Below, piece after piece: positions 1,134 through 31,236 of a stretch of 64,000 nt of DNA. Each line of letters starts with the position of its first letter. Positions within the stretch are counted from its first letter, which is position 1. A program made the position numbers and the translations under genes. The notes beneath the pieces were generated by a model. That model saw nothing but the letters and a program-made list of their open reading frames with translations. It did not search any database and was not told where the DNA came from. Origin of the DNA: Eledone cirrhosa (lineage: Eukaryota); NCBI GenBank assembly GCA_964016885.1, contig OZ024741.1, positions 102,114,001 to 102,178,000 on the forward strand. Reading direction: 5' to 3'.

Positions 1134-1228
1134 GCCTCGGTAGCGCAGTAGGCAGCGCGTCAGTCTCATAATCAAAAGTAATTCTTGGAGGAATCTGAAG
1201 GTCGTGAGTTCGATCCTCACCTGGGGCA
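1134..1228 (+). tRNA. tRNA-Met-CAT: Elongator tRNA-Met(CAT) with 22-nt intron (1171-1192), intact
   Basis: GCCTCGG/CTGGGGC-A acceptor stem, A box TAGCGCAGTAGG, anticodon arm TCAGT-CTCATA^A-TCTGA, B box GTTCGATCC, downstream T-runs; 73 nt after intron removal. Confidence 0.93.
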
Positions 1229-2581
1229 CATTTATTTTGATTTTCATTATTTTTTTGTGGGGTTAAATATTATATCCTAAAGGCATTAGAAAGCCTTTTT
1301 CATGAATCGAAGAGGAGATATTTCGTAGATACAGAAGTGATTAACAATATACAAAAACATATACTAGTTTTGGGGGTCCACTTTTCACATTTGGCCTGTG
1401 TCTAAAACCATACTTGTCGGCCTATGTTTAAGAACTGATCTTGACACATTACCAGTTTTAGCGGAGTTCAATTCTAAACACTCATGGTTCCATTATTAGC
1501 TTTGGGTGTCTAAATCTCAGAACTAACCTGGAGCTATTAACCATTTCTGTGACTAGATTTCACAATTGGGCTGGCCCGTTTATCAGCGTAAGAAGGTCCA
1601 CATTTCAAAAATGACATTGGAATATTACGAATTTTAGGTTTCTAGCCCAACTAAACCGGAATTATTACCAACTTTGGTGTCTAAATTTCAATAGACCTGT
1701 AAATATTTCCAGCTTTGGGAGATTAGATTTCAAATTTTGTCTGGTTCAAACACCAGCTTTGGGGACCTACATTTAATATTCTATTTGGCCCTTAATATCA
1801 ATTCAGGGTGTCGATATTTCACAACTGTCCCTGGAGTAATGCCATCACTAGTAAATTTATTTTGGGGTTGACGGTGTGCTAATTTTCACATCTCACGAGT
1901 TTTGGTAGTCTACATTTGATAATAGATTCGGGCCTATTCCTAAGTTATGGAGGTTACGTTTTACATCTGACCTGGGACGATTATCAATTTCTGTAGCCTA
2001 CATTTTACACTTCACCTGGTTATATAAGCAGATTTCTTTACGGAATGGGTGTACACTTCACTTCTCATCTGGGCCTATATTCTGGTTTGCATGGGCTTAA
2101 TTATAAATACGGTGAAATAGCCTGATTCGTGCGTGTGTGTGTGGGGGGGTGGTGGCTCTACATATCAATATTTGTCTGGTCTTTAATACCAATTTAGGAG
2201 GCTAATGATTCAGGACTGTCCTTGGATAATTGACTTCACCACGAAATTTATTTAGGGGCTGTGGGTATGCTATATTTAATATCTCACGGGTTTTGGGAGT
2301 CTACATTTGAAGTGAGAGCAAATAAAAATCCATAATTATAGACCGTGGAACTTTTAGAATTTATGGTTATCACATTAGCACAAGAATGAAAGTACAACTA
2401 GTTTTTTACTTAACAGATAATTAAAGTATATAAGATATAATAGAGCAGCTATCGAAATAACTCTAATTAAACGTTAATGAGAGATACACATTGAAGTCTT
2501 GGACATTGTACATTGGCTGACGTTATAGCAATTAGCAAGTGGTAGTGTTGATGTAGTTAAGTATAAGAAGAACTGTTAGTT

Positions 2582-2676
2582 GCCTCGGTAGCGCAGTAGG
2601 CAGCGCGTCAGTCTCATAATCAGAAGTAATACTTGGAGGAATCTGAAGGTCGTGAGTTCGATCCTCACCTGGGGCA
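2582..2676 (+). tRNA. tRNA-Met-CAT: Elongator tRNA-Met(CAT) with 22-nt intron, intact
   Basis: Exons identical to the 1134 copy; intron ATCAGAAGTAATACTTGGAGGA. Confidence 0.93.
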
Positions 2677-3547
2677 CAATTATTTTGATCTTACTATTTT
2701 TTTGTGAGGTTCAATATTATCTTATAAAGGCATTAGAAAGCCATTTCATAAATCGAGAATGAGATATTTCGTAGATTCAGAAGTGATTGACTATATACAA
2801 TGTGTTCTTTTAACCAAATTCTACACTGAATTAATGTGTACTTAGAAATGTGGTGTACATATGATATCTGTTTTGGTTATATTACCAGTTTTTCACTAAT
2901 AACACGGAGATAATACCGGCATTGTGAGGGGGAAGCTATATTTTACAATAGACTTGGACCTATTACTAGTTTCGGGGACCCACATTGTACATGTGGGCCT
3001 ACATTTAAGAATTGATCTTGACTTATTACAAGCTTTAGCGGAGTTCATTTCTTAGCTCATATAGGTGCTATTATTAGCTTTGTCGGTCTAAATTTCAGAA
3101 CAAAACTAGAGCTAGTAGCCGTTTCATGAGACTTGATTTCAGAAATGGGCTGGCCCTTTTATCAGTGTAAGTGTGTCCACATTTTAAAAATTGACATTGG
3201 TATATTACCAATTGTAGCTACCTACATATCCAACTACACCCGTCTTATTACCCATTTTGGTGTCTAAATTTCAATTGATCTGGGAGAATCTATTTCAAAT
3301 TTGGTCTGGTCCAAACACCAGCATTTGGGGACCTACTGTTCACATTTGATCTGGCCCTTAATACCAATTTAGGGGTCCCATATTTCACAACTATCCCTGG
3401 AGGAATGCCATCACCAGTAGATTTACTTTGGGGTTGACGGTGTGCTAATTTTCACAATGAAGTCTTGGACATTGTACCTTAGCTGACATTATAGCAATTA
3501 CCACGTGATAGTATTGATGTAGTTAAATATAAATAAAGCTTGTAGTT

Positions 3548-3642
3548 GCCTCGGTAGCGCAGTAGGCAGCGCGTCAGCCTCATAATCAAAAGTAATAATT
3601 AGAGGAATCTGAAGGTCGTGAGTTCGATCCTCACCTGGGGCA
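3548..3642 (+). tRNA. tRNA-Met-CAT: tRNA-Met(CAT) with 22-nt intron, single T31C variant
   Basis: Exons match consensus except TCAGC at the base of the anticodon loop; intron ATCAAAAGTAATAATTAGAGGA. Confidence 0.85.
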
Positions 3643-6145
3643 TATTTATTTTGATTTTCATTATTTTTTTTGTGGGGTTCAATATTATCTTCTAAAGTCA
3701 TTAGAAAGCCTTTTTCATGAATCGAAGAGGAGATATGTCGTAGATACAGAAGTGATTAACAATATACAAAACCATATACTAGGTTTGGGTGTCCACTTTT
3801 CATATTTGGCCTGCGTCTGAAACCATACTTTTCGGCCTATGTTTAAGAACTGATTTTTACCCATTACCAGTTTTAGCGGAGTTTCATTTCTAAACACTCA
3901 TGGTTCCATTATTAGCTTTGGGTGTCTAAATCTAAGAACTAACCTGGAGCTATCAACCATTTCTGTCACTAGATTTCACAATTGGGCTGGCCCGTTTATC
4001 AGCGTAAGCAGGTCCACATTTCAAAAATGACATTGGAATATTACGAATTTTAGGTTTCTAGCCCAACTAAACCGGAATTATTACCAACTTTGGTGTCTAA
4101 ATTTCAATTGACCTGTAAACATTTCCATCTTTGGGAGATTAGATTTCAAATTTTGTCTGGTCCAAACACCAGCTTTGGGGACCTACATTTAATATTCTAT
4201 TTGGCCCTTAATATCAATTCAGGGTGCCGATATTTCACACCTGTCCCTGGAGGAATGCCATCACTAGTAAATTTATTTTGGGGTTGACGGTGTGCTAATT
4301 TTCACATCTCACGAGTTTTGGTAGTCTACATTTCAAAATAGATTCGGGCCTATTCCTAAGTTATGGAGGTTACGTGTTACATCTGACCTGGGACGATTAT
4401 CAATTTCTGTAGCCTACATTTTACACTTCACCTGGTCATATAAGCAGATTTCTTTACGGAGTGGGTGTACATTTCACTTCTCATCTGGGCCTATATTCTG
4501 GTTTGCATGGGCTTAATTATAAATACGGTGAAATAGCCTGATTCGTGTGTGTGTGTGTGGGGGGGGGGGTGTCATCTACATATCAATATTTGTCTGGTCT
4601 TTAATACCAATTTAGGAGTCTTATCAATCACGACTGCCCTTGGATAATTGCCTTTACCATGAAATTTATGTAGGGTCTTATGTGTCTGCTATATTTAAAA
4701 TCTTACGGGTTTTGGGAGTCTACATTTGAAGTGAGAGCAAATAAAAATCGATAATCAGAGACCGTGGAGTTTTCAGATTTTATGGTTAAATGCTCAACAT
4801 AAGAATGAAAGTACACCAGTCTTGTACTTCAGGTAATTAAAGTAGATTTGCCATCACCACCAAATTTATTACTGGGCTGGAAGTATGCTATATTTAATAT
4901 CTCACGGATTTTGGAAGTCTACATTTGAAGTGAGTGCAAATAAAAATCCATGATTAGAGACCGTGGAGTTTTCAGAATTTATGGTTAAATGCTGAATATA
5001 AGAATGAATCTACAACTAGTTTTTTTATTTAACAGGTATATAAAGTAGATAAAGCAGTTATGAAAATATCTCTAATTGAAAGTTAATGAGACATACATAA
5101 TGAAGACTTAGACATTGTACATTGGCTGACAATATAGCAATTAGCAAGTGATAGTGTTGATGTAGTAAAATATGAGTGAAACCGAGGTTCAATATTATCT
5201 TCTGAAGGCATTAGATAGCCCATTTCATGAATCGAGGAGGAGATATTTCGTAGATTCAGAAGTGATTGACTATATACACTCTGTTCTTTTAACCAAATTT
5301 TACTCTGAATTAATGTGTACTTAGAAATGTGGTGTACATATGATATCTGTTTCGGTTATATTACCAGTTTTTCACTAATAACACGGAGATAATACCGGTA
5401 TTGGGAGGGGGAGGCTATATTTTACAATAGATGTGGACCTATTACTAGTTTCGCGGACCCACATTTTACATGTGGCCTGGGTCTAATACCCCACTTGTGG
5501 GCCTACATTTAAGAATTGATCTTGACTTATTACAAGTTTTAACGGGGTTCATTTCTTAGCTCATATAGGTGCTATTATTAGCTTTGTGGGTCTAAATTTC
5601 AGAACAAAACTAGAGCTAGTAGCCGTTTCATGAGACTTGATTTCAGAAATGGGCTGGCTCCTTTATCGGCGTAAGTGGGTCCACATTTCAAAAACTGACA
5701 TTGGTATATTACCAATGGTAGGTACCTACTTACCTATTACACCCGACTTATTACCAACTTTGGTGTCTTAATTTAAATTGATCTGGTCCTATTTCCAGCT
5801 TTGGGAGAATCTATTTCAAATTTGGTCTAGTCCAAATACCAGCTTTGGGGACCTTAACATCAATGTAGGGGTCCCATATTTTACAACTATCCCTGGAGGA
5901 ATGCCATCACCAGTATATTTACTTTGGGGTTGACTGTGTGCTAATTTTCACAATGAAATCTTGGGCATTGTACATTAGCTGACATTATAGCAATTAGCAA
6001 GTGATAGTATTGATATAGTTAAATATAAATAGAACTGTCAGTTGGTCTGGTCAGTTGTAAAATGTAGGCCCCTTAAACTGGTTGCACTCTCAGGGTAATT
6101 GTGAAATACAGGCCTCAGAGCTGGTAATTGTCACATATATTTTAT

Positions 6146-6323
<178 letters not shown>

Positions 6324-6460
6324 CATATATAATACAATCATGTGCAATATGCACAATTAGAGATTATAATAACATTGAATCTAGCATAAATTATAATGAA
6401 GTTGGTAAAAACATATCTCTAATTAAAATAAAGTAGTTAAATAGAAAAAAATTGGCAGTT

Positions 6461-6555
6461 GCCTCGGTAGCGGAGTAGACAGCGCGTCAGTTTTATAATC
6501 AAAAGTAATACTTGGAGGAATCGGAAGATCGTGAGATCGATCCTCACTTGCGGCA
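6461..6555 (+). pseudogene. Degenerate tRNA-Met-derived copy, anticodon TAT
   Basis: Colinear 95-nt copy with A-box, B-box (GATCGATCC) and stem substitutions; loop TTTATA. Confidence 0.8.
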
Positions 6556-7277
6556 CAATGTTTTCAATTTCTTTTATTTTTTCGGTTGAATTATATTATC
6601 TACTCAAGGCATTTAAAGCTTAATTCATGAAGCGAGGAGTAGATTTTTTCCTAGATTCAGAAATGATCAGCCATGCATTATGTTTTCTATTAAAAAAAAT
6701 TTACCTCAGATTAATTGGAAGTTAGAAAACTGGAGTATATTTCAGATTATCCAAGTTTATGACCTTTATTTCACAACATACTATTGACCGCTTCGAGGGC
6801 CTATATTTCATAAATAAACTATACTTATTACCTGCTCTGAGGTCTACGTTCCACAACTAGCCAAGTATTATAACCAGCAGTAGGTGTCTACATTCCTGAG
6901 CTGACGTGGGTCTGTTACTAATCTGGGGTCATAAAAGCTCACAATTAATCTGTTCCTATTACCCGCTTTAGATACCTACATTTCATAACTAATCTGGGCT
7001 TATTAATATTTTGGAGTCTACATTTCACAACTAACCTCTAACTATTACCACCTTTGTAACTTGGATTTCACATCTCACCAAAGCAAATATAAAAATTTCG
7101 TTACAAAAGGCGCTGCATTTTACACCTCACCTGTTCTTATATCGTGGTCATGGTTTTAAGGGCGATGAAATAGTTCTAATTAAAATGACATTATATATAC
7201 ACAATGCAGTGTTAGACAACATAGCAATTAGAATATATTAGTGTTGATGTAATTAAATAAAAGAAGTACTTCCAGTT

Positions 7278-7372
7278 ACCTCGGTAGCGCAGTAGGCAGC
7301 GAGTCAGTCTCATAATCAAAAGTAATACTTGGAGGAATCTGAAGGGCGTGAGTACGATCCTCACCGGGGGGC
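7278..7372 (+). pseudogene. Degenerate tRNA-Met(CAT) copy with intron
   Basis: G1A, B box GTACGATCC, D-stem and 3' end changes. Confidence 0.8.
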
Positions 7373-9712
7373 CATTTATTCACATTTTTATTTTTTAGTT
7401 CAACAATATTATCCTTTGAAGGAATTAGAAAGTTTATTTCGTGAAGCGAGCAGTAGATATTTCGTAGATTCAGAAGTAATCGACCATATAATATATGTTA
7501 TTAATCAAAATGTACACTGTATTAACTGATAGTCAGAAAATAGGGTCTAATTTCGTATACCACTTTGAGGCCCTACATTTCACAACTGACGTGGGACTAT
7601 TAGTAGCATTGGTATCCACATCTCACTTCCCACCTGGGCGTATATCCTCGTTTGCACGGTCTTGATTGTAAGTTCGATGAAATCGCAGTGTCTGTCTATA
7701 CACTACGTTCAAAAATATTCTTCCCTGTATCATACTTTAAGTTAAAGATTCACGTATAGAAATAACTAAATGAAATAATTCCGATTGTAAGTTTATCTCC
7801 CTTGCATCAGAATGTAATCCTAAATGTTACAATAACTATGAATTAACAATTCCATATATAATATATAATTTTATGAAGTGAGTTGAAATAAAACTCTATA
7901 TTCTCAATTAGAGATCATCGGGAATGAAGCCTCCACGATCTCAATTATTTATTTTTATTTGTACTCTCTGACTTCATATAAACCTTAATTTCAATGTGGG
8001 AAACTTTAATACTTATTCCCCGCAAAAATGTTCATTTCACAACTGACGTGATCTTATCAGTAGCATTGGTATAAAGGACCAGGGCAATTGTGAAATGTAG
8101 GCACATAGAACTGGTAATAGTCCCAGGTTAGCTGTGAAATGTAAGACCCATACTAGTAATAGGACCATGTCACCTGTTTAATACAGACCTCTAAAGCCAG
8201 TAAAATAACGGGAAAATTGTATAGCACCTTCACCCCACCTCCAACCTAAGAATCTTTAAAAGGTCAGGTGAAATGTGAAATGTTGGCTCCAACAACTGGT
8301 TAGAATTCCATATCATTTGTGACTATAAAGCTGGTTATAAGACCTGGTCAGTTGGAAAATAAATAATAATATTATCTTTTCGAGGTTGCTTTATTATATC
8401 TTATCTACTTTAATTACCTTAAGCACAAAACTAGTTCTACTTTCATTCTTGTGTTAAGGAGATAACCATAAATTCCGAAGTATTCACGATCGCTAGTTAC
8501 GGATTTTTATTTGCACAAACTTACATCATATAAATCTTTTTTGCACGAGGGAAACTTTAATACATATTAATTATAACGTTAGTGGTTGCATTATTTTTCC
8601 AGGGAGATTATTTATATTGTATATGTGAATCTTTGAGCTAATATATGCTATCATAACAGAAATTAATTTAATACTACAAAATATTATGAACATAATGCTA
8701 TTTCACCACACAAACCAGGCTATACACCCAGATGAGATGTGAAATGTAGGACACATCTCCTAAAGATATCAGCTAAAATAACCAGGTGAGTTCTAAAATG
8801 TAGGCGAACAAAGCAAATAATTGGTACAGGTCATTTGTGAAATGTAGGATACTGAAATTGGTTATAGTGTCAAATTGGATGTTAAAAGTAACCCCTAAAA
8901 CTTAGGAATAGGACCATGTCGGTTATGAGATGTAGACTCCCAAATCACGTGAGGTATTAAATGTAACATACCCCCAGCCCCTAAATAAATCTGCTGGTGA
9001 TGTCAATTCTCTAAGGACAGTAAATGTGAACTGCAGACCCCAAAGAAGGTGTTTGGACCAGGCCAAATTTAAAATAGAATCTCCAGAAGCTGGTAACAGG
9101 ACCAGATCAATTGAAATTTAGACACCAAAGCTGGTAATAGGTCGAGTTTAGCAGGTAATAGGTACCTATAATTGGTAATATGTCAATGTCAATTTTTGAA
9201 ATGTGGTACCACTTAAGCTGACAAAATGTCCAGACCAATTGTGAAATCTAGTTTCATGAAACGGTTATTAGCTCCAGGTTAGTTCTGAAATTTAGGCCCA
9301 CGAAGCTAATAATAGGATCATGTGAATTGAGAAATGTACGCCATTAAAACTGATAATGGGACAAGATCAGTTCTTAAATGTAGGCCCACAAGTCTGGTAT
9401 TACCCAGGCCAAATGTGAAATATGTACCGCCTAATCTAGTAATAGGTCCACATCTATTGTGAAATATAGCCTCCCCTCCCAATGCCGGTATTATCTCCAT
9501 GTTATTAGTGAAAAACTGGTAATATAACCAAAACAAATATCATATGTACACCACATTTCTAAGTACACATTAATTCAGAGTAAAATATGGTTAACAGAAC
9601 ACATAATATATAGTCAACCACTTCTGAATTTACGAAATATCTCCTCCTCGATTCACGAAATAGACTTTCTAATGCCCTCAGATGATAATATTATTGACTA
9701 AAAAAATATATA

Positions 9713-9807
9713 TGCCCCAGGTGAGGATCGAACTCACGATCTTCAGAATTTTTCAAGTATTTCTTCTGATTACGAGACTGACGCGCTGCCTACTGCGCTA
9801 CCGAGGC
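9713..9807 (-). pseudogene. tRNA-Met body with anticodon CGT (probable pseudogene)
   Basis: Acceptor, D and T arms intact; loop CTCGTA; intron 3' end changed to …GAAAAA; A38T and a variable-loop G>A change. Confidence 0.7.
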
Positions 9808-10225
9808 AACTGGCAGTACCACTTATATCTAACTACATCAACACCATCATTTGCTAATTGCTATAGTGTCAGCCAATGTACAATGTCTAAGACTGCATTG
9901 TGTATCGCTCATTAACTTTCAATTAGAGATATTTTGATAGCTGCTTCATTATATCTTATCTATTTTAATTACCTGTTAAATAAAAAAAACTAGTTGTGGA
10001 TTCATTCTTGTGTTAAGGAGATAACCATAAATTCTGAAAAATCCACGGTCTAACTATAGATTTTTATTTGCACTCACTTCAAATATAGACTCTCCAAACC
10101 TGTGAGATGTGAAATGTAGCAGTCGTGAAATATAAGCCACCTAAATTGGTATTAACAGCCTGACCAAATGTGAACTGTAGGTCCCCCAAAGCTGGTTTTT
10201 GAACAAGGGGCACTAATTGTTTCAT

Positions 10226-10450
10226 TCTTCTTCTTCTTCTTCTTCTTCTTCTTCTTCTTCTTCTTCTTCTTCTTTCTGGAAATGTCGTGGGGGCAGAGTT
10301 CCTAAACAGTCCTTCCATCGGGTCCGATCGGAAGCAACCGTCTCCAACTAATCCAGTAGGATCCCCAGGCGAGACCAGCCAAGCTCATGAATGTTATCCA
10401 ATCAACTTGCTCGGGGTCTACTCCTTGATAGCCTGTCACTGAGATTCTTT
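10226..10450 (-). mobile_element. 3' fragment of an RTE-group LINE with (AAG)n tail
   Basis: Minus strand gives frameshifted SRPR…LDNIHELGWSRLGI…VASDRTRWKDCLGTLPPR, followed by an (AAG)n tail at 10226-10273. Confidence 0.7.
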
Positions 10451-10632
10451 ACGATTCTTTACTATTTCTGACTAACAGTTAATACAGTGTATACTTTGGC
10501 TAATAATACATATATTATATAGTCAATCATGTCAGAATCTACGAGATATCTAATCCGCGATTCATTAAGTAAGTTTCCCGATTTCTTCAGTGGGTAATAT
10601 TATTGAACTAAGAAAATAAAAATAATAAAATG

Positions 10633-10727
10633 TGCCCCAGGTGAGTATCGAACTTACGACCTTCAGATTCCTCCAAATATTATCAACGATTATGAGACTG
10701 ATTCGCTGCCTACTGCGTTACCGAGGT
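10633..10727 (-). pseudogene. Degenerate tRNA-Met(CAT) copy with intron
   Basis: Colinear copy with T-stem, D-stem and G1 substitutions. Confidence 0.8.
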
Positions 10728-10936
10728 AACTGGTGACATTTCATCTATTTAACTCCATCAACACTAACACTTGCTAATTGCTATATTGTCAAACTATGTA
10801 TTTGTTACATCTCACCTGTTCTTATATCGTGATGTACACTGTCATGATTGTAAGTGCGGTGAAATAGCAATATCTATAAATGTCGTTCAAAATATTTTGT
10901 TTCTAAATGACGTTGTGGTGTTTAGTTAATTCCCTT

Positions 10937-11125
10937 GCTGGATTGGCAGTATCGGTAGAAGGTCGGACGCCATGCTTTGACGCATAGAGTTAGGGCCCTT
11001 CCAATTCTGAGTTCAAATCCCGCCTAGGTTAACTTTGCCTTTCATCCTTACGGGGTCGATAAAATAAAGTACCAGTAATGTACTGTGATACTTGCTGGCC
11101 TTGTGCCAAAAAGTAGAAACAATTA
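10937..11125 (+). mobile_element. tRNA-derived SINE with Nin-like core
   Basis: GGCAGTATCGGTAGA…GAGTTCAAATCCCGCC…TTTGCCTTTCATCCTTACGGGGTCGATAAAATAAAGTACCAG…GGCCTTGTGCCAAAA; more than 10 copies or fragments in the window. Confidence 0.85.
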
Positions 11126-11834
11126 ATTATAATTACATGATTTACGAATCTAAGGTTGTCCCCCTTGTACTATAATAATTTCTAATTTAAGCACATAGCT
11201 AGTAATTTTATGGAGAGAGTAAAAATCAATTAAGTCGACCACAGTATCTTATTGATACTTCATTTTATCGACTAAATAACGATGAGATGCAAAGTTGACA
11301 TCGACGGGATTAGATCTCTCCCTAGCACAATAGAGGATTAGATATTTCGTAGATTCAGACATATATGTATTATTAACCAAAGTATACACTGTATTAACTG
11401 TTAATCAGAAACAGGGCCTAATTTCGTATTGTGCATGAGTCTATTCCAATTCAACTCTGGGTTTAACAATTCACAAATGAACTTCCGAATGTAAGTTTAT
11501 CTCCCTTGCACCATAATGTAACCACACATGTAGCAATAAATATGTATTAACAGTTCCATATAGAATATATAATTTTAGTAAGTGCTAATAAATCTATAAA
11601 CACAATTAGAGATCGCAGAGAATGCAGAATTTAAGGTTAGCTTCCCTTCACATGAAATTCAACCAGTTTCGTAATTAACAAAAAATTTAAGTAGATAACA
11701 GGTAATGAAGTAGTTAGGAAAAAGTTTATTAGAGATACACAATGAAGTGTTATTGTGTATTGTGTATTGGCTGATACCATAGCAATCAGCAAGTGACAGT
11801 GTCGATGTAGCTAAATAGTAGCAGAATTGTCGCT

Positions 11835-11912
11835 GCTTCGGTAGCGTAGTAGGCAGTTCGTCAGATCAAAATCTGAACCTGAATGTCGCGAGTTCGATAC
11901 TCACCTGGAGCA
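11835..11912 (+). pseudogene. tRNA-Met remnant lacking the anticodon loop and part of the intron
   Basis: GCTTCGGTAGCGTAGTAGGCAG…GAGTTCGATACTCACCTGGAGCA within the usual flanks. Confidence 0.75.
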
Positions 11913-13005: not shown

Positions 13006-13100
13006 GCCTCGGTAGCGCAGTAGGCAGCGCGTCAGTCTCATAATCAAAAGTAATACCTGGAGGAATCTGAAGGTCGTGAGTTCAATCCTCACCTGGGGCA
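13006..13100 (+). tRNA. tRNA-Met-CAT: Elongator tRNA-Met(CAT) with 22-nt intron, intact
   Basis: Consensus exons with B box GTTCAATCC; intron ATCAAAAGTAATACCTGGAGGA; TTTTT terminator follows. Confidence 0.9.
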
Positions 13101-14498: not shown

Positions 14499-14552
<54 letters not shown>

Positions 14553-14769: not shown

Positions 14770-14864
14770 TACTCCAGGTGAGTATAGAACTCACGACCTT
14801 CAGATTTCACCAAGTATTACTTTTGATTATGAGACTGACACACTGACTACTGCGCTACCAAGGT
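14770..14864 (-). pseudogene. Degenerate tRNA-Met(CAT) copy
   Basis: Many substitutions in acceptor stem, D arm and T loop. Confidence 0.8.
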
Positions 14865-16327: not shown

Positions 16328-16422
16328 TGCACCAGGTGAAATTCGAAATCACGACCTTCAGATTCCTCAAAGTATTACTTCTGAATATGAGACTGACGCA
16401 CTGCCTACTGCGCTACCGAGGC
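16328..16422 (-). pseudogene. Degenerate tRNA-Met(CAT) copy
   Basis: T arm disrupted (GTGATTTCGAATTTCAC); acceptor and D-stem mismatches. Confidence 0.75.
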
Positions 16423-17479: not shown

Positions 17480-17574
17480 AGATCCGGGTGAGTATCGGAC
17501 TGACGACCTTCAGATACCTCTAAGAATTAATTTTTATCATAAGACGGACGCGCTGCCTACTGCGCTACCAACAC
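17480..17574 (-). pseudogene. Highly degenerate tRNA-Met copy, anticodon TAT
   Basis: A box retained; acceptor stem and B box destroyed. Confidence 0.7.
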
Positions 17575-18438: not shown

Positions 18439-18559
18439 CATATGGCCAGGCGAGGTGTAAAATGTAGGAGAACAAAGTAGGTAATTGGCACATGCCATCT
18501 GTGAGATTTAAAAGGGGTAACGACTCCCTTCCGTCACGAATAAAAATGCGATTTGCACC

Positions 18560-18853
18560 TAGAAAGATTCCTCTCAGGCACAAGTCCCGGCAAGGTTGTT
18601 TGTGGAAGACCAGCAGTGGCCCATTCATACCAGTCACCCATCTCCACGCTACCGATGATGTCCAAGGTAAAGGCAATGGCCGATACAGGTTGACACCAGT
18701 GACGCCGCAACTCATATTTACAGCTAAGTAAACTCGAGCAACGTGAAATAAAGTGTCTTGCTTAAGGACACAACGCATTATCCTGTCCGAGAATCGAAGT
18801 CACAACCTGCCGATTGCAAGCCCAATGCTCTAACCACTAAGCGATGCACCTCC
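18560..18853 (-). mobile_element. tRNA-derived SINE (second family)
   Basis: GGAGGTGCATCGCTTAGTGGTTAGAGC…TTCGATTC head, then GTGTCCTTAAGCAAGACACTTTATTTCACGTTGCT core shared with the 47497, 53770 and 63190 copies. Confidence 0.75.
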
Positions 18854-19614: not shown

Positions 19615-19650
19615 CGCGACAGGTGTGGATCGAACTCACGATCTTCAGAT
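19615..19650 (-). pseudogene. tRNA-Met 3' exon fragment abutting a SINE fragment
   Basis: ATCTGAAGATCGTGAGTTCGATCCACAC; 5' half replaced by Nin-core SINE sequence; inverted paralog at 26897-26932. Confidence 0.7.
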
Positions 19651-19979
19651 TCTGCTTAGTAACTTTGCCTTTCATCCTTTCGAGATCGATAAAAAAGTAC
19701 CAGTCTACTACTGGGTGATCGATTCTTCCACTATATCTCTCTTCCTCTCTGTCACGTTCTATCTTTCCCTGGAAGAAATCTGCTGTACTCAGACCTGGAG
19801 ATGGAGGGGCTTCACCAGGCCTAAAATGCCCAAGGAGAGCCGTATATCAATACGACACCCCTACGACTCTATCAGGAGTTACGGGACCATACATAAATAC
19901 ACTGTATTAACTGGTAGCCAGAAATATTGCAATCAACTCGTGATGTGTTGATGTTAAATATACGAGAGAAAACCCAGTT

Positions 19980-20073
19980 GCCTCGGTAGCGCAGTAGGCA
20001 GCGCGTCAGTCTCATAATCAAAGTAATATTTGGAGGAATCTGAAGGTCGTGAGTTCGATCCTCACCTGGGGCA
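19980..20073 (+). tRNA. tRNA-Met-CAT: Elongator tRNA-Met(CAT) with 21-nt intron, intact
   Basis: Consensus exons; intron ATCAAAGTAATATTTGGAGGA; T-run terminator. Confidence 0.93.
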
Positions 20074-20328: not shown

Positions 20329-20850
20329 TATATTTCACAATAGACTTGGATCTATTACTAATTTCGGGGGCCCATAGTTCACATTCGGCCTGCATCTAAT
20401 ACCATAATTATTGGCCTACATTTAACAACTGATCTTGACTCATAACAAGTTTTAGCGGCGTTCATTTCTCAACTTACATGGTCCTGTTATTAGCTTTGTG
20501 TGCCTAAATTTCAGAACTAAACTAGAGGTAATAGCCGTTTCATGAGACTAGATTTCACAAATTGGCTGGCCATATCAGCTTAAGTGGGACCACATTTCAA
20601 AAATTGACATTGGCATATTATACATTTTAGGCACCTATTTAGCAGCTAAACCGGAACTATTACCAGCTTTGGTGTCTAAATTTCAATTGACCTGATCCTA
20701 TTACCAGCTTCTGGAGAATCTATTTCAAATTTGATCTGGTCCGAACACCAGCTTTGGGGACCTACAGTTTACATTTGATCTGGTCCTTAATATCGATTTA
20801 GGGGCAAAAATGTTTCACAACTGTCCTTGAAGGAATGTCATCACCAGCAG
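20329..20850 (+). repeat. Degenerate ~44-bp tandem satellite (representative tract)
   Basis: TACATTTC-like starts at 20329, 20373, 20417, 20461, 20505, 20549, 20591, 20677, 20719, 20763, 20809. Confidence 0.88.
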
Positions 20851-21275
20851 ATTTATTTTGGGCTTGAGGATGTGCTAATTTTCACATCTGACGTGTTTTG
20901 GTAGTCTACATTTCAGAATGGACTTGGACTTATTCCTACGTTTTGAGGGTTACGTTTTACATCTGACCATTTTACCTTCACCTGGTCATATTAGCAGATT
21001 TCTTTATGGGATGAGTGGTTCATTTCATATCTCACCTGCTCCTATATTCTGGTTTACCCAATCTTTATTGTAAATGTGTTAAAATAGCAATGCGTGCAGG
21101 TTGCGTTTAAAATATTTCGAAGTATTTAACTAATTCCTGTTACGATAACTTATGTTGCATCAAAGATTCACATATACGGTTAGATGTAGTCCTAACGTAA
21201 GGTTATCTCCCTTGCACAATAATAGATGATATTATTGAAGCCCCCCCCCCCCAAAAAAAAAAATGAAAAGATGTG

Positions 21276-21370
21276 TGCCCCAGGTGAGGATCGAACTCAC
21301 GACCTTCAGATACCTCCACGTATTACGTTTGATTATGAGACTGACGCGCTGCCTACTGCGCTACCGAGGC
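21276..21370 (-). tRNA. tRNA-Met-CAT: Elongator tRNA-Met(CAT) with 22-nt intron, intact
   Basis: Consensus exons; intron ATCAAACGTAATACGTGGAGGT. Confidence 0.92.
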
Positions 21371-22207
21371 AACTGCCATAATTGCTTTTATTTAACTACA
21401 TCACTTGCTAATTGCTATATTGTCGGCCAATGTACAATGTCTAAGACTTCATTGTGTATCTCTCATTAACTTTCAATAAGAGATATTTTCATAGCTGCGT
21501 CATTAGATGTTATCTACTTTAATTACTTGCTAAGTATAAAACTGATTGTACTTTCATTCTTATATTAAGGAGATAACCATGAATTATGAAGTCTTCACGA
21601 TCTCTAATTATGGAGATTTATTTACACTCACTTATTTCACATAAATCTGAATTACATGAGGGATACTTTAATACATATTAATTATAACGTTCGTGGCTGC
21701 ATTGTTGTGCAGTATGATGCAAGGGAGATAACCTTACATCCCGACTTCATCTATTTATACTGTACTAGCAGAATGGCCCGGCGTTGCTCGGGATTTGCTC
21801 TAGGGTTCTTATATATTTGATATATATTTATCCTTATCGAGCCTCTTGAAATAAATACGTTTTGTTTATATTTTGTTATTGTGTATGCAAAAATATTTGG
21901 AGACGAATATATAATTATATATATATATATATATAAAACAGTACAAAGAAGTACGGAATACCTCGGCCTCGAGATGGTGTCTACATTTTGTGCTTATAAA
22001 AAAATTCGTCGTAGATTACCAGGAGTTTTTTCCGTGCGAAGAAAATCAATACTTTATCGCGAAATAAATACTTTTGTTTATATTTTGTTATTGTGTATGC
22101 AAAAATATCTCTACACGAATATATAATTATATATATATATATTAAAATAACAGATTAAAGTTTAAGCAAAGAGTCGCTGCTTTCACCCTTAACGGGAGCT
22201 TCTGAAA

Positions 22208-22402
22208 TTAAAATAAAAAATTAGCTGTTCGGCGATTGGTTCGTTGTTTGTTTGTTTCAAGTGCTCTTCTGGTGGCAGTACGTTCTGCATCTTGCGACAG
22301 TCGAATAGCAGATTCCACTGACGATTCGTTTATCCGCCTTGTTCTTTCTCTTGCCACTATCGCATTATTTCGGCCAATGGAGTATCTCTTCCTTCGAGGC
22401 AT
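22208..22402 (-). pseudogene. Truncated N-terminus of a Helitron RepHel-like protein
   Basis: MPRRKRYSIGR…RRINESSVESAIRLSQDAERTATRRALET, a basic/charged repeat typical of animal Helitron protein N-termini; same strand as the element. Confidence 0.6.
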
Positions 22403-23049
22403 GATCTAAAAGCAGTACGAAGTACACTAAGACTAACTGGTAGAGTAAGGAGTAAACTCGTCAGTGATTCATGTGATATCCGAACCGTTGACTTAAAGTT
22501 TAAGCAAAGAATCGCTGCTTTCACCCTTATCGGGATCTTCTACCTAAAAGCAGTATGAAGTACACTAAGACTAACTGATGTAATCGTATGCAATTGTTGG
22601 CCTTGTTTGTTTATATATATTTTTTTGTATATGCAAAACTATCTGTCAGTGATGCATGCGATTATGTAATCGCCGGCCTTGTTTGTTTATATTTTGTTCT
22701 TGTGTATGCATCGTATGTAATCGTTGGCCTTGATTGTTTATATTTTGTTTTTGTGTATGCAGAAATATATATATTTTTTAAAATAACATATTAAAGTTTA
22801 AGCAAAGAATCGCTGCTTTCAACCTCAACGGGATCTTCTGAAACTAAAAACATCAATCTGTGAACGCAGATGTAAATATTTCGAAAAACGCTGGAACCGA
22901 AGGAAAACAGGAAAACGATACTTTGGTTCGTGAAGACGTTCCCTGGCATAAGAATATATATATATATACACACACACACTATATATACATATATACACAC
23001 ACAGACTGATCGCGTCATAATGACGTAATGCAGACAACCCGGAATACAG

Positions 23050-23212
23050 TGGATTAGCAGTATCGGTAGAGGGTCGGACGCCATGCATTATGGTCTGAGT
23101 TCAAATCCCGCCGAGGTTAACTTTGCCCTTCACCCTTCGGGGTCGATAAAATAAAGTACCACTAATACAGTGGGATAATTGCTGGCCTTGTGCCAATAGT
23201 AGAAACAATTAT
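23050..23212 (+). mobile_element. Nin-core SINE nested in the Helitron
   Basis: Same head and core as the 10937 copy, with an internal deletion. Confidence 0.85.
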
Positions 23213-24509
23213 AAGGGTGCAACGTTATATCTATGTATCTATCTAAAAAGAGAAAGACTAAGAATTATAGAGAGAGATCGTTAAATCGCCTAATGCAGTC
23301 CCTAGGGCATTAAAAATTTGAAATTTCTTTGCTCAAAACACTCATGGGACCATAAGTATTACATGTGTAAAGTTTGAAAACAATCGGTTGGGTGGTTCTC
23401 GAGTTTTAGTGATTGGACAGACAGACAGATATTCTCTGTTTTAGTAATATAGATATGTGAATCTTTGATGTAACATATGCTATCATAAGAGAAATTAATT
23501 AAATACTACAACATATTTTGAACGTAGAACTCATTACTATTTCGCCACATTTACAATAAAGATTGGGTAAAGTAGAATAGAGGACCAGATGAGATATGAA
23601 ATGTTGCACCCATTCCGTAAAGAAATCTGCTAATATGACCAGGTGAAGTGTGAAATGTCGGCTAACGAAATTGCTAATCGTCCCAGGTCAGATGTAAAAC
23701 GTAACCCCCAAAATTTAGGAATATACCGGAGTCGAATATGAAATGTAGAGTACTACAACGCAAGAAAATTAGCATACTCTGAACCCCGAGGTAAATCTAC
23801 TGGTGATGACATATTTCAAAAACAGTAAATTGATATTAAAGGCCAGATCAAATGTGAACTGTAGGTCCCCAAAGTTGGTGTTTGGACCAGACCAAATTTG
23901 AAATAGACTGTCCAGAAGCTGGTAATAGGACCAGTTCAATTGAAATTTAGGCACCAAAGTTGATAATAGGTCAGGTTTAGCTGGTAATTAGGTACGCGAA
24001 ACTGGTAATATGACAATGCCGCTTCTGAAATGCTGATATGGCCAGGCCATTTGTGAAATCTAGTCTCACGAAGCTGCTATTATCTCCATGTTAGTTTTTA
24101 AATTTAGGCACACAAATCTAATAATAGGACCATGTGAGTTGAGAAATATACGCTGCTAAAACTTGTAACAAGTCAAGAATGGTATTAGACCTAGGCAAAA
24201 TGTGAAATGTGGGCCCCCATAACTAGTAATATGTCCAAGTCTATTGTGAAATATAGCCTCCCCCTCCCAATGCTGGTGTTATCTCCATGTTATTGGTAAA
24301 AAACTGGTAATATAACCAAAACAGATATCATATGTACACGATATGTCTAACTATACATTAATTCAGCGTAAAGGTTCGTTAAAAGAACACATAATATATA
24401 GTCAATCATTTCTGAATCTACGAAATATCTCCTCCTGAATACACGAAATAGGCTTTTTAATGCCCTCTGATGATAATACTATTGAACTAAAAAGAAATAG
24501 AATAAAACG

Positions 24510-24604
24510 TGTCCCAGGTGAGGATCGAACACACAACCTGCAGATTCCACCCAATATTACTTTTGATTATGAGACTGACGCCCTGCCTACTGCGCTACCG
24601 AGGC
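24510..24604 (-). pseudogene. Degenerate tRNA-Met(CAT) copy
   Basis: Mismatches in acceptor, D and T stems; intron end …GGTGGA. Confidence 0.72.
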
Positions 24605-25635
24605 AACTGGCAATTCCATTTATATTTAACTACATCAACACTACAACTTGCTAATTGCAATATTGTCGGCCAATGTACAATGTTTAAGACTTCATTGTGT
24701 ATCTCTCATAACTTTCAATTAGAGATATTTCGATAGCTGCTTCATTATATCTTATCTACTTTAATTACCTATAGTTTCATTGTGTTAAGGAGATAACCAT
24801 AAATTCCGAAGTCTTCACGATTCCCAATTATGAAATTTTTATTTGCACTCACTTCAAATGTATACTCCCAAAATCCGTGAGATGTTAAATGTAGCACACC
24901 CCAGCCCCTAAATTAATTTGCTGGTGATGCCGATTCTCCAAGGACAGTCTTGAAATCTAGTCCCCTGAATTGATATTAAGGGCCAGACCAAATGTGAAAT
25001 GGAGAGCGTCACTAAATCTGGTTTTGGACCTGAACAAATGTGAAATCGAACCTCCAGGAGCTGGCAGTAACCCAGGCCGATCGAAATTTAGACGCCAAAG
25101 ATGGTATTGTGTACTCGTTATTTGATCATTGGATTTCGCAACTGATGACGCCATGCTTTGCAGCAAAGAGTTACAGCCCTTTATGGTCTGAGTTCAAATC
25201 CCGCCGAGGTTAACTTTGCCTTTCATCCTTACGGGGTCGATAAAATAAAGTAACAGTAATACACTGGTATAATTGCTGGCCTTGTGCCAAAAGAAGAAAC
25301 AATTATTTGATAAAAGTAAATCCCCCAAAATAGTTATTGACCCATGTCATTTTCTAAAATACAGTCTCACTTAAGTTGATAAAAGGACCGAGTCATTTGT
25401 GAAATCTTGTCCCCCTAAACGGCTAAGAAGCCAATGTAAGTTGTGGAATTTAGGCACCCAAAGCTGGTATTATCTTCATGTTATCTGTGAAAAGATGGTA
25501 ATAGGTCCAGACCAAATGTTGAATGTACACCACCTTTCCAACTGTCCATTAATTAAGTGTACAATTTGGTTAATAGTAAATTGTTTCAGAGGATAATACT
25601 ATTTAATGAAAAAAAATATAACTAAAAGACAAAAC

Positions 25636-25730
25636 AGCCCCAGGTGAGTGTCGAACTGACGACCTTCAGATATCTCTGAGAATTAATTTTTATCATAAGA
25701 CTGACGCGCTGCCTACTGCGCTACCGACAC
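25636..25730 (-). pseudogene. Degenerate tRNA-Met copy, anticodon TAT
   Basis: Paralog of the 17480 copy; loop CTTATG; acceptor 5' strand GTGTCGG. Confidence 0.72.
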
Positions 25731-26757
25731 AACTGGCGCTGCGGCTTGTATTTAACTATATCAAATCTATCACATTTTAATGACTATGTTGTCAACCTAA
25801 GTATCATACAATATCTAACACTTCGTTGAGTATCGCCAATTAACTTTAAATTATATATTTCCATACTTACTACATTAATTCGTAGATTCAGAAGTCACTC
25901 TGAATTTTACTCTGAATTAATGTGTAGTTAGAAATATGGTGTACATCTTATTTTTATTTTGGTTATATTACCAGTTTTTCACTCATAACATAGAGATAAT
26001 ACCAGCATTGGGAGGGGTTAGGCTATATTTCACAATAGACTTGGACTTATTACTAGTTTCGGGGGCCCACATTTCACATTCAGCCTAGGTCTAATACCAT
26101 ACTTGTGGTCCTATATTTAAGAACTGATCTTGATCCACCACCAGTTTTAGCGGCGTATATTACCCAACTCACATGGTGCTATATTAGCTTTGGGTAATAT
26201 TTCAGAACTAATCTGGAGTTAATAGCTGTTTCATGAGACTAGATTTCACAAATTGGTTGGCCCTTTTATCAGTCAAAGTGGGATCACTCTAGAAACGGCT
26301 ACTAGATCTAGTTTAGTTCTGAAATTTAGGCACACAAAGCTAATAACAGGAGCATGTAAGTTGAGAAATGAACGCCGCTAAAACTTGTTATGAGTCAAGA
26401 TCAGTTGTTAAATGTAGGCCAATAATTATGGTATTAGATGCAGGCCGAATGTGAACTATGGGCCCCCTAAATTAGTAATAGGTCCAAGTCTATTGTGAAA
26501 TATAACCACCCCTACCAATCCTGGTATTATCTCCATGTTATTAGTGAAAACAGACAATATAACCAAAACAAATATCATATGTACGGCATATTTCTAAGTA
26601 CACATTAATTCAGAGTAAAATTTGGTTAAAAGAACACATTGTATATGTGTCAATCACTTCTGAATCTACGAAATATCTCCTTCTCGATTTATGAAATAGG
26701 CTTTCTAATACTTTTAGAAGATAATATTATTGAACTGAAAAAAAATTAAAATAGATG

Positions 26758-26803
26758 TGCCCCAGGTGAGGATCGAACTCACGACCTTCAGATTCCTCCA
26801 AGT
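26758..26803 (-). pseudogene. tRNA-Met 3' exon plus half intron (5' part deleted)
   Basis: Perfect 3' exon preceded by ACTTGGAGGA, fused to sequence matching 19700-19755. Confidence 0.8.
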
Positions 26804-27608
26804 GACAGAGAGGAAGAGAGATATAGTGGAAGAATCGATCACCCAGTACTAGACTGGTACTTTTTTTATCGACCTCGAAAGGATGAAAGGCAAAGAATCT
26901 GAAGATCGTGAGTTCGATCCACACATGTGATGTTTTCTTTTTTTTTTCTTTAATTATTATATTTTTTACTTCAATAATATGAAACACTGAAGGAATTAGA
27001 AATCTTACTTCATGAAACGAGGAGATATTTCGTAGATTTAAAAGTAATCGACCATATAATATATGTATTATTAACCAAAGTGTACACAGTATTAACTGAT
27101 AGTCAGAAGTAGGGTCTAATTTCGTATTCTGCCAGAGCCTATGACAATTCAGCTCCAGGTTTTACACTTTACAAATGACTTGGTTGTAATATTATCATTG
27201 TAGGCCTATATTTTACAACAGATGTGTGCCTGGTACCATTTTGGGGGCCGTACATCTAACATTTGTCCTGGGCCTTCTTTGTGGGTCTACATTTCAAAAG
27301 TGATCTGCGGAGGGGGGGGGGGGTTATTAGCAGATTTGGAAATCTGCATTTCACAAATGGACTGGTCTTATCATCAGCTTTATGTACCTATATTTCAAAA
27401 CTGACCTAGCATCACCAGCAAATTAATTTAGTAGCTGGAGGTTAGCTATATTTCACACTTCCCGTCGTTTTGGGAGGGAATCTTTCTAGGTGCAAATCCC
27501 ATTTTCATTTGTGACCGAAGGGAGTCGTTACCCCTTTTAAATCTCACAGATGGCATGTGCCAATTACCTACTTTGTTCTCCTACATTTTACACCTCGCCT
27601 GGCCATAT

Positions 27609-27760
27609 GTGGAGTTGCGTGGCCTAGTGGTGAGACTGTTGGACTTAAGATCATAATGTCGTGGGTTCGGTTCCTGGGCCGGGTTGCGAGTTGTGTTCTT
27701 GACAAAAATAGTTCATTTATTGTTGCTCCAGTATACAGAGCTGATGAGTACAACCAATAG
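27609..27760 (+). mobile_element. tRNA-derived SINE (inverted duplicate of the 18290 copy)
   Basis: Reverse complement of 18290-18438 including flanks. Confidence 0.7.
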
Positions 27761-28534
27761 TTGGGGATTTAACCCTGCAATGGGTTGTAACTGAGTCAAT
27801 GAATAATTATTGATCGATAAAGTAAGTGCCAGTTAAAAGGTTGTATGCGTATACATCTATTGACATTGGCATTTTACCAAAACCAGACCTATTACCAGCT
27901 TTGGTCCTAAACCGATCTATTACCAGCTTTGGTGTCTAAATTTCAATTGACCTGATCCTATTACCAGCTTCTGGAGAATCTATTTCAAATTTGATCTGGT
28001 CCGAACACCAGCTTTGGGGACCTACAGTTTACATTTGATCTGGTCCTTAATATCGATTTAGGGGCAAAAATGTTTCACAACTGTCCTTGAAGGAATGTCA
28101 TCACCAGCAGATTTATTTTGGGCTTGAGGATGTGCTAATTTTCACATCTGACGTGTTTTGGTAGTCTACATTTCAGAATGGACTTGGACTTATTCCTACG
28201 TTTTGAGGGTTACGTTTTACATCTGACCATTTTACCTTCACCTGGTCATATTAGCAGCTTTCTTTATGGGATGAGTGGTTCATTTCATATCTCACCTGCT
28301 CCTATATTCTGGTTTACCCAATCTTTATTGTAAATGTGTTAAAATAGCAATGCGTGCAGGTTGCGTTTAAAATATTTCGAAGTATTTAACTAATTCCTGT
28401 TACGATAACTTATGTTGCATCAAAGATTCACATATACGGTTAGATGTAGTCCTAACGTAAGGTTATCTCCCTTGCACAATAATAGATGATATTATTGAAG
28501 CCCCCCCCCCCCCCAAAAAAAATGAAAAGATGTG

Positions 28535-28629
28535 TGCCCCAGGTGAGGATCGAACTCACGACCTTCAGATACCTCCACGTATTACTTTTGATTATGAGAC
28601 TGACGCGCTGCCTACTGCGCTACCGAGGC
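28535..28629 (-). tRNA. tRNA-Met-CAT: Elongator tRNA-Met(CAT) with 22-nt intron, intact
   Basis: Consensus exons; intron ATCAAAAGTAATACGTGGAGGT; recent duplicate of the 21276 copy. Confidence 0.92.
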
Positions 28630-29710
28630 AACTGCCATAATTGCTTTTATTTAACTACATCACTTGCTAATTGCTATATTGTCGGCCAATGTACAATGTC
28701 TAAGACTTCATTGTGTATCTCTCATTAACTTTCAATAAGAGATATTTTCATAGCTGCGTCATTAGATGTTATCTACTTTAATTACTTGCTAAGTATAAAA
28801 CTGATTGTACTTTCATTCTTATATTAAGGAGATAACCATGAATTATGAAGTCTTCACGATCTCTAATTATGGAGATTTATTTACACTCACTTATTTCACA
28901 TAAATCTGAATTACATGAGGGATACTTTAATACATATTAATTATAACGTTCGTGGCTGCATTGTTGTGCAGTATGATGCAAGGGAGATAACCTTACATCC
29001 CGACTTCATCTATTTATACTGTATATGTGAATCTTTGATGTAACATATGCTATCATAACAGAAATTAATTAAATACTACAAAATATTTTGAACGTAGAAC
29101 TCATTACTATTTCGCCACATTTACAATAAAGATTGGGTAAACCAGAATATAGGACCAGATGAGATATGAAATGTTGTACCCACTCCGTAAGGAAATCTGC
29201 TAATATAACCAGGTGAAGTGAAAAATGTCGGCTAACGAAATTGATAATCGTCCCAGGTCAGATGTAAAACGTAACCCCCACAATTTAGGAATAAGCCGGA
29301 GTCGAATATGAAATGTAGAGTACTACAACGCAAGAAAATTAGCACACTCTGAACCCCGAGGTAAATCTACTGGTGATGACATATTTCAAAAACAGTAAAT
29401 TGATATTAAGGGCCAGATCAAATGTGAACTGTAGGTCCCCAAAGTTGGTGTTCGGACCAGACCAAATTTGAAATAGACTCTCCAGAAGCTGGTAATAGGA
29501 GCAGTTCAATTGAAATTTAGGAACCAAAACTGGTAATAGGTCGAGTTTAGTTGGTAAGTATGTACCTAAAACTGGTAATATGACAATGGCGCTTCTTGAA
29601 ATGTAGTCCCACTTAAGCTGATATGGCCAGGCTAATTGTGAAATCTAATCTCACGAAGCTGCTATTATCTCCATGTTAGTTTTTAAATATAGGCACACAA
29701 AGCTAATAAT

Positions 29711-29821
29711 TGTTTCTACGTTAGGCACAAGGCCAGCAAATTACCCAGTGTATTACTGGTACTTTATTTTATCGACCCCGTAAGGATGAAAGGCAAAGTT
29801 AACCTCGGCGGGATTTGAACT
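29711..29821 (-). mobile_element. 5'-truncated Nin-core SINE with 13-bp TSD
   Basis: CAAAGCTAATAAT at 29698-29710 and 29822-29834, inserted inside a satellite monomer. Confidence 0.88.
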
Positions 29822-30214
29822 CAAAGCTAATAATCGCACCACGTGAGCTAAGAAATGAACGCCGCTAAAACTTGCAATTCTTAAATGTAGGCCTACAAGA
29901 ATGGTATTAGACCCAGGCCAAATGTGAAACGTGGGCCCCCATAACTAGTAATATATCCAAGTCCCCCTCCCAATGCTGGTATTATCTCCATGTTATTCTT
30001 GAAAAACTGGTAATAAGACCAAAATAAGTATCATATGTACACCACATTATTAAGTACACATTAATTCAGAGTAAAATTTGGTTAAAAGAACAAATTGTAT
30101 ATAGTCAATCACTTCCGAATCTACGAAATATCTCATTCTCGATTCACGAAATAGACTTTCTAATGCCCTCAGATGATAATACTATTGAACTGAAAAATAG
30201 AATAATATAAAGTG

Positions 30215-30309
30215 TGCCCCAGGTGAGGATCGAACTCACGTCTTTCAGATTCCTCCTAGTATTATTAGTGATTACGGGCCTGTGGCGCTGCCTACTGCGC
30301 TACCGAGGC
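30215..30309 (-). pseudogene. tRNA-Met-derived copy, anticodon CGT, disrupted anticodon and D stems
   Basis: Acceptor and T arm intact; CACAGG-CCCGTA in the anticodon arm. Confidence 0.75.
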
Positions 30310-31141
30310 AACTGGCAGTGCCACTTATATAACTACATCAACACCATCACTTGCTAATTGCTAGTGTCAGCCAATGTACAATGTCCAAGATTTCATTATG
30401 TATCTCTCATTAACTTTTAATTTGAGATATTTCGATAGCTGCTTCATTATATCTTATCTACTTTAATTACCTGTTAAATAAAAAAACTATTTGTACTTTC
30501 ATTCTTGTGCTAAGGAGATAACCATACATTCTGAAAACTCCACGGTCTATAATTATTGATTTTTATTTGCACTCACTTCAAATGTAGACTCCCAAAACCC
30601 GTGAGATGTTAAATGAAGCCCACCCCATTTGCTGGTGATGGCAACTCTCCAAGGACAGTCGTGAAATTTAGACCCCCTAAATTGGTATTAAGGGCCAAAC
30701 CAAATGTAAAATGCAGAGCCTCCCCACATCTGGTATCTGGACCTGAATAAATGTGAAATCGAAGCTGCAGATGTTGGTAATACGCCCAGACCGATCTAAA
30801 TTTAGACACCAAAGATGGTATTGTGTCCTCGTTATTTGAAAAAAATTGACCCCTGTCATTTTCTAAAATACATTCTTACTTAAGTTGATAAAAGAACCGA
30901 GTCATGTCTGAAATCTTGTCCCCCGGAACGGCTATAAAGCTGAGGAGGTCAGTTTTGGAATTTAGGCACCGAAAGCTGGTATTATCTCCATGTTATCTGT
31001 GAAAAAATGGTAATAAGTCCAGACCAAATATTGAATGTACACCACCTTTCCAACTGTCCATTAATTAAGTGTACAATTTTGTTAGTAGTAAATTGGTTCG
31101 GAGGATAATATAATTAGATAAAAATAAATAAAAAACAACAC

Positions 31142-31236
31142 AGCCCTATGTGAAGATCGAACTGACGACTTTCAGATATCTCTAAGAATAACTTTTGATT
31201 ATGAGACTGACACGCTACCTGCTGCGCTACCGACAG
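31142..31236 (-). pseudogene. Highly degenerate tRNA-Met(CAT) copy, last of the array
   Basis: Anticodon arm and intron recognisable; acceptor and T stems broken. Confidence 0.72.

Follow-up and report, generated by a model that had tools for sequence, protein, structure and literature searches.

Elongator tRNA-Met(CAT) genes with a canonical-type intron in the octopod Eledone cirrhosa

The window is a 64,000-nucleotide (nt) stretch of the Eledone cirrhosa genome (assembly GCA_964016885.1, contig OZ024741.1, positions 102,114,001 to 102,178,000, forward strand). Positions 1134-31236 of the window hold the distal quarter of a 118-kilobase (kb) cluster of elongator transfer RNA (tRNA) Met(CAT) genes and pseudogenes, about 87 kb more of which lies upstream of the window. 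Exon scans of the window found 19 two-exon copies, three clear 3'-half copies and a weak fourth, in agreement with the original prediction of about 19 full or near-full copies and three half copies. The insert between the exons is 22 nt long in 17 of the two-exon copies and 21 nt long in one. The copy at 11835 has an internal deletion spanning the anticodon arm and is without a normal insert, so the claim that the complete copies carry a 21-22 nt insertion after A37 holds for 18 of the 19.

Five window genes are intact and have consensus exons. The gene at 1134-1228 (+) consists of exon 1 (1134-1170), a 22-nt intron (1171-1192) and exon 2 (1193-1228). The genes at 2582-2676 (+), 21276-21370 (-) and 28535-28629 (-) also have 22-nt introns, and the first of them is the A-type gene of a 2.4-kb tandem unit. 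The fifth, at 19980-20073 (+), has the 21-nt intron. Two genes with 22-nt introns have a single exon difference, which is at tRNA position 31 in 3548-3642 (+) and at position 57 in 13006-13100 (+). These seven genes, each detected by both Rfam and the exon scan, are the 7/19 copies with 0-1 exon differences that had been reported earlier. The CAT anticodon is intact in 13/19 two-exon copies, and 12 window copies score as tRNA with the Rfam model (RF00005) with a maximum of 52 bits. ARAGORN finds 10 genes in the window when introns are allowed, eight of which are Met-CAT. Without the intron search it wrongly calls the Met genes at 2582, 3547 and 19980 as Ile-AAT or Leu-TAA, which is a possible cause of such genes being overlooked.

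Removal of the insert gives a cloverleaf of 73 nt with G1-C72, U31/U39, UUCGA at 54-58 and A73, as had been predicted. Elongator tRNA-Met is distinguished from the initiator by G1-C72, U54 and the lack of three consecutive G-C pairs at 29-31/39-41. All five representatives have G1-C72, the 29A-U, 30G-C and 31U/U positions and UUCGA at 54-58, which identifies them as elongator and not initiator genes. The insert directly follows A37, which is the canonical tRNA intron position (37/38, one base 3' of the anticodon). In sequence terms the junction may slide by up to 3 nt since the intron and exon 2 both begin with ATC; however, the 37/38 placement is favoured by variants confined to the first triplet and by the pairing register. 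Judged from their sequence, these are elongator Met-CAT genes with a canonical-type intron that would be removed by splicing.

The anticodon-intron pair of eukaryotic precursors joins position 32 to the third-last intron base. This register is found in 25/26 distinct introns of the intact genes here and in 31/32 distinct introns of the metagenome genes described below. Pairing of C32-U33-C34 with intron positions -3, -4 and -5 is possible in 25/26 distinct introns of the intact genes, and the last two intron bases vary freely between chromosomes. The intron begins with ATC in 25/26. The anticodon-intron pair is given as a feature of eukaryotic tRNA precursors in the accessible part of PMC4090602. 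The genome also has matches to the TSEN catalytic domain tRNA_int_endo (PF01974) above the cut-off at two loci, on chromosomes C15 and C21, and to the RtcB domain (PF01139) at one locus on C6; these are domain matches only. It is therefore likely that the insert is a canonical intron, excised by the TSEN nuclease, with the exons rejoined by the RtcB ligase.

The whole cluster was surveyed in the window together with 180 kb upstream and 20 kb downstream. It contains 89 two-exon copies at G000:C2:102,027,333-102,145,236, so the large Met array that had been described is real in the window but extends over 118 kb and is not confined there. The insert is 22 nt in 85 of these copies, 21 nt in one and about 20 nt in one misaligned, degenerate copy; it is deleted in two. 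The exons are perfect in 27 copies, differ by one base in 28 and have at least two differences in 34. The middle of the cluster is made of the 2.4-kb tandem unit, with two genes per unit, and 19 aligned units have a mean difference of 0.8%. Variable columns in this tandem core number 7/146 in exons and 116/2170 in spacers (Fisher p = 1.0), and selection within the core was rejected. The low divergence and the equal exon and spacer variation suggest that the expansion was recent and took place without selection on single copies. The cluster is likely to be a birth-and-death array with recent, near-neutral tandem expansion. A similarity search with the elongator Met gene DNA returned 159 candidates, and the best 40, which were scored, are all inside the cluster. 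A run of T is found at most 25 nt downstream of all 55 intact cluster copies. The tetranucleotide AGTT stands directly before G1 in 82/89 cluster copies.

The 3.0-Gb chromosome-scale assembly was probed with three exact or near-exact motifs. The exact exon-junction probe for an intronless Met gene had no match in the whole assembly. The anticodon-arm motif, which is common to both forms, had 68 matches, and 59 of them are in the cluster. Outside it, full intron-bearing genes occur once each on C5, C7 and C20 and five times on C8; all eight are intact and have 21-nt introns. The remaining match is a truncated 5' half on C6. The 3'-exon motif had 89 matches, of which 15 were at new places. All 15 were fetched, and they comprise three degenerate intron-bearing copies and 12 non-Met matches, mostly the heads of one common repeat resembling short interspersed nuclear elements (SINEs). 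Genome-wide, the insert is present in 98/100 two-exon copies and the other two are deleted pseudogenes, so the three probes found no cleanly intronless elongator gene among the 100. An Rfam tRNA search of the whole genome had no Met gene among the best 63 of about 552,000 candidates; since only these 63 were scored, that search gives no census. With no intronless gene detected, the decoding of Met would rely on TSEN and RtcB, as the original prediction proposed. Its proposal of a dedicated cluster is not supported, since intact intron-bearing genes occur on four other chromosomes, the core exons vary like the spacers, and the genome has a similar Ile-TAT cluster.

Selection on the mature tRNA was examined in five genes, each from a different chromosome. 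Their exons differ at 0-1 of 73 nt, while the introns are alike at 10-17 of 21-22 nt and the upstream flanks at 8-21 of 40. This comparison supports purifying selection on the mature tRNA. The same selection had been claimed from the seven conserved window copies, but these alone do not demonstrate it, since they were chosen for their exons and the tandem core gives no sign of exon conservation.

Introns of the same type were found in metagenome contigs surveyed with a degenerate 5'-exon motif, which returned 126 loci from 15/64 parts of the collection. The motif had 132 matches, of which 126 are complete genes; six were cut by contig ends and dropped, and the junction is visible in four of these, all intronless. 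An intron of 13-36 nt is present at the same site in 38/126 complete genes. These 38 genes represent 32 distinct introns, 13/64 mature types and 22 assembly prefixes. The introns are confined to the 81 genes that differ by at most 6 nt from the tRNA of this genome, and are found in 0/45 of the more distant ones. All of the 32 distinct introns have A at +1, 31 have U at +2 and 28 have C at +3, and the three anticodon-intron pairs are complete in 28. The hosts are probably animals, given the near-identical tRNA body. Intronless genes in contigs L135, L140, L157, L192 and L212 encode exactly the tRNA predicted as the product of the C5 and C20 genes; this mature type has an intron in three metagenome genes and none in six. 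Since introns with like ends occur at the same site in 38/126 genes, a gain confined to this lineage, as originally proposed, is unlikely; a single origin does not follow. The spread of the intron among these probable animals also corresponds to the outcome, intron-containing Met-CAT genes common across invertebrates, that the original prediction said would remove its novelty, although the accessible literature has no record of it.

The preferred reading is that the octopod elongator Met genes, whose intact copies are all intron-bearing, are likely spliced, and that the intron is likely old and widely shared with invertebrates rather than gained here. The probability of this reading, which draws on comparisons of genomic sequence, is put at about 0.75. 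RNA polymerase III would transcribe the gene from its internal promoter to the downstream T-run. In the precursor, intron bases G-3, A-4 and G-5 would pair with C32, U33 and C34 and leave a 3-nt bulge at the 3' splice site. TSEN would then cleave both sites, with the tRNA body and the anticodon-intron helix as its guides, and RtcB would join the exons into the 73-nt tRNA. The likely reason for the intron's retention, by analogy with the Tyr, Ile and Leu introns, is an anticodon-arm modification that takes place on the precursor. Precursor-dependent modification has been proposed as the reason for the retention of Met and Arg introns (PMC12168002, as far as its accessible text goes).

Several results weigh against this reading. 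The three-pair helix contributes only about 1 kcal/mol in folding, with a pair probability of 0.18-0.61, and the full cloverleaf together with the helix appears in 0/5 minimum-energy folds. T-runs also follow 24/25 degenerate cluster copies, so they are no marker of active genes. The genome probes detect only motifs that match exactly or nearly so, and parts of the genome may be missing from the assembly. In the metagenomes, 43/81 close relatives are intronless, and many contigs come from common assemblies and are not independent. The common ends may be convergent, as the 3' GAG is also found in fly Ile-TAT and Leu-CAA introns. A search that listed 24 sequencing runs bears neither way on splicing, as three runs of unspecified kind contain 91% of the query words and 21 contain 6-9%, the level of the RNA runs. 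As regards tRNA intronic circles, introns shorter than 21 nt are reported, in the part of PMC4536317 that is accessible, to escape libraries.

A reading in which the genes are real and spliced, but animals acquired the intron repeatedly and independently, or cephalopods acquired it recently, with convergent ends, is doubtful. The intron middles are unalignable between lineages and the lengths range from 13 to 36 nt, as repeated gain would allow, and the mature type noted above occurs both with and without the intron (3/9 genes with). Pairing with C32-U33-C34 determines the 3' GAG, which fly Ile and Leu introns have as well, and fly Ile-TAT introns begin with ATC if placed at 37/38 (PMC4536317, accessible part). 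Gains and losses of tRNA introns are also documented in yeasts in the available portion of PMC4090602. However, most of the metagenome introns share their first three bases with those of this genome, and they are found only among the 81 genes closest to it. In addition, the Ile-TAT introns of this genome begin with GAC, so its splicing machinery does not require a 5' ATC. A far less probable explanation is that the insert is unspliced and the array a family of tRNA-derived repeats or pseudogenes, with the working Met tRNA supplied by intronless genes that the assembly or the probes missed. Splicing here is deduced from DNA and not from RNA, more than a third of the cluster copies (34/89) have two or more exon differences, exons in the tandem core are no better conserved than its spacers, and tRNA-derived repeats are described as abundant in cephalopod genomes (PMC6962438, accessible text). 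Set against these are the near-identity of the exons across five chromosomes on which introns and flanks have diverged, the conserved pairing bases and the failure of all three probes to find an intronless gene in a chromosome-scale assembly. The narrower possibility that the Met copies are themselves tRNA-derived SINEs was ruled out, as there are about 100 copies at few loci, their flanks are unrelated between chromosomes and their exons are conserved.

The conserved 5' ATC of the intron is a copy of tRNA positions 38-40, and the Ile-TAT introns of this genome do not have it. The motif possibly imitates the mature loop, or else it may survive from a duplication of positions 38-55. An origin of the animal intron by tandem duplication of tRNA nucleotides 38-55 bears on the origin only and is considered unlikely. 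The segment begins with ATC and ends with GAGTT, so a copy would bring the two conserved ends and the anticodon-intron pairs in a single step. The 5' and 3' intron motifs agree with exon positions 38-40 and 51-55, the 18-nt length is within the observed range, and the intron middles score above shuffles against exon positions 41-50 (18 groups, p = 0.014). That test was post hoc, the segment came no higher than 9th among 64 control segments from the tRNA, three groups were at or below most shuffles (p above 0.89), and pairing alone accounts for the GAG. Transfer of the intron from the genome's own Ile-TAT genes was ruled out, since their introns, in the 30/44 motif matches that were fetched, are about 20-38 nt, begin with GAC and look unrelated. 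The exact fly Ile-TAT motif had no match in this genome.

Beyond the preferred reading of an old, spliced intron, a more tentative extension is that the elongator Met intron is a fifth ancient animal tRNA intron, kept in many invertebrate lineages with a role in modification. In that case it possibly shares its ancestry with the Met intron of plants and fungi, and it may have disappeared from vertebrates, insects and nematodes, on which the textbook list was based. The 5' AUC copy would let the precursor show a mature-like anticodon loop for intron-dependent modification, and octopods would be wholly reliant on tRNA splicing for internal AUG codons.

The intron is an ordinary canonical tRNA intron in an isotype that is not recognised for animals. 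The accessible parts of the cited papers list tM(CAU) introns as conserved in plants and fungi (PMC12168002), treat Met introns as standard in plants (PMC11700998; PMC13578239) and describe introns as essentially absent from metazoan tRNAs beyond Tyr, Ile, Leu and Arg (bioRxiv 10.1101/2025.06.17.660180). The plant and fungal elongator Met introns share the isotype and a short intron with those seen here, and in plants have GAGT near the 3' end (PMC11700998, in the part available). They differ in that angiosperm introns begin with GCT and these with ATC, and in that the plant mean length is 11-14 nt, compared with 21-22 nt here in an animal-type tRNA body. The GAG at -5 to -3 is common to both, but pairing requires it and other isotypes have it too. 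The canonical metazoan introns of Tyr-GUA, Ile-UAU, Leu-CAA and Arg-UCU resemble the Met intron in their position at 37/38, their shortness, the anticodon-intron pair and presumed TSEN/RtcB processing. Within this canonical set, the Ile-TAT genes of this genome bear introns and the Arg-TCT genes seen on C8 do not. The vertebrate elongator tRNA-Met(CAT) has the same isotype and a conserved anticodon arm, where SNORD97/SCARNA97-guided Cm34 at the wobble position protects against cleavage (PMC6601510, accessible text). Unlike the genes here, the vertebrate Met genes are without introns, as follows from the metazoan statement in the accessible text of bioRxiv 10.1101/2025.06.17.660180.

The literature search found no paper on Met-CAT introns in molluscs or other invertebrates, although GtRNAdb, RefSeq annotations or supplements may record them. 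The accessible text of publications on Aplysia, Platynereis, Schistosoma, the giant squid (with supplements) and oyster gave no isotype-level intron data. Two papers from 2025, in the parts available, essentially confine animal tRNA introns to Tyr, Ile, Leu and Arg and assign Met introns to plants and fungi. That list would be corrected by an animal whose intact elongator Met genes, as far as found, are all split and which has many relatives with the same intron type; such a case would suggest that the list reflects the sampling of vertebrates, flies and nematodes. The genes also provide a natural experiment on the persistence of tRNA introns. Since letter-identical mature tRNAs exist with and without the intron, intron-dependent modification of tRNA-Met is directly testable. 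The surprise is limited, as the mechanism is ordinary and routine tRNAscan-SE annotations may already contain these genes unremarked.

The other copies in the window are decayed and were detected by the exon scan. Two are on the plus strand and have 22-nt introns: 6461-6555, with nine exon differences and a lost anticodon, and 7278-7372, with seven differences. On the minus strand, 9713-9807 has three exon differences, a CGT anticodon and no anticodon-intron pairing, and 10633-10727 has six differences and a 22-nt intron. Further minus-strand copies are 14770-14864 (nine differences), 16328-16422 (six), 17480-17574 (13), 24510-24604 (five), 25636-25730 (eight, anticodon lost), 30215-30309 (seven, anticodon CGT) and 31142-31236 (12), the final copy of the cluster. 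The pseudogene at 11835-11912 (+) has lost 17 internal nt across its anticodon arm and intron and is not a clean intronless gene. The copy at G000:C2:102,059,577 has an identical deletion and identical substitutions, which indicates a segmental duplication inside the cluster. The 3'-half copies are at 19615-19652 (-), 26758-26802 (-), which retains the intron end and a perfect exon 2, and 26895-26932 (+); the weak remnant at 18779-18814 (-) has 12/36 mismatches.

Large one-isotype clusters are normal in this genome, and the Met cluster is an ordinary part of the finding. Its tandem units, mixed orientations and many decayed copies are like those of single-isotype birth-and-death clusters, such as the genome's own Ile-TAT and Thr-AGT clusters. 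The Ile-TAT cluster is on the same chromosome, where 32/44 Ile-TAT motif matches lie within 330 kb (G000:C2:142,028,743-142,359,234; L266-L286). The copies fetched from it have introns of about 38 nt starting with GAC, many with a hairpin-like middle. A dense Thr-AGT/TGT cluster at G000:C1:243.65-243.68 Mb has 11 Thr calls in two 3-kb loci (L052, L054). Five Arg-TCT genes next to the C8 Met genes (G000:C8:3,875,170-3,885,222; L102-L103) are intronless, the opposite of the vertebrate pattern.

The SINE-like family with a Met-like head is separate from the Met gene copies. In this tRNA-derived family (L242, L243, L246-L250, L252-L256) the head matches the Met 3' exon through the T-loop, and a 240-320 bp body is common to most of them. 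The window also has a reading frame of the long interspersed nuclear element (LINE) type at 39602-43223 (+), presumably RTE-like, with an endonuclease and a reverse transcriptase interrupted by stops and frameshifts. A second LINE-type fragment is at 56315-57082 (-).

Matches to the molluscan hemocyanin domain number 39 genome-wide. One hemocyanin unit scores 823 bits against the single-unit chain 1js8, 717 against 4yd9_C and 471 against 8tnv, which are presumably octopus, squid and gastropod proteins. On these scores an octopod is likely. There are at least five multi-unit hemocyanin genes, three at G000:C1:173.74-173.91 Mb and an inverted pair at C26:21.93-22.02 Mb, and two divergent hemocyanin domains are on C27.

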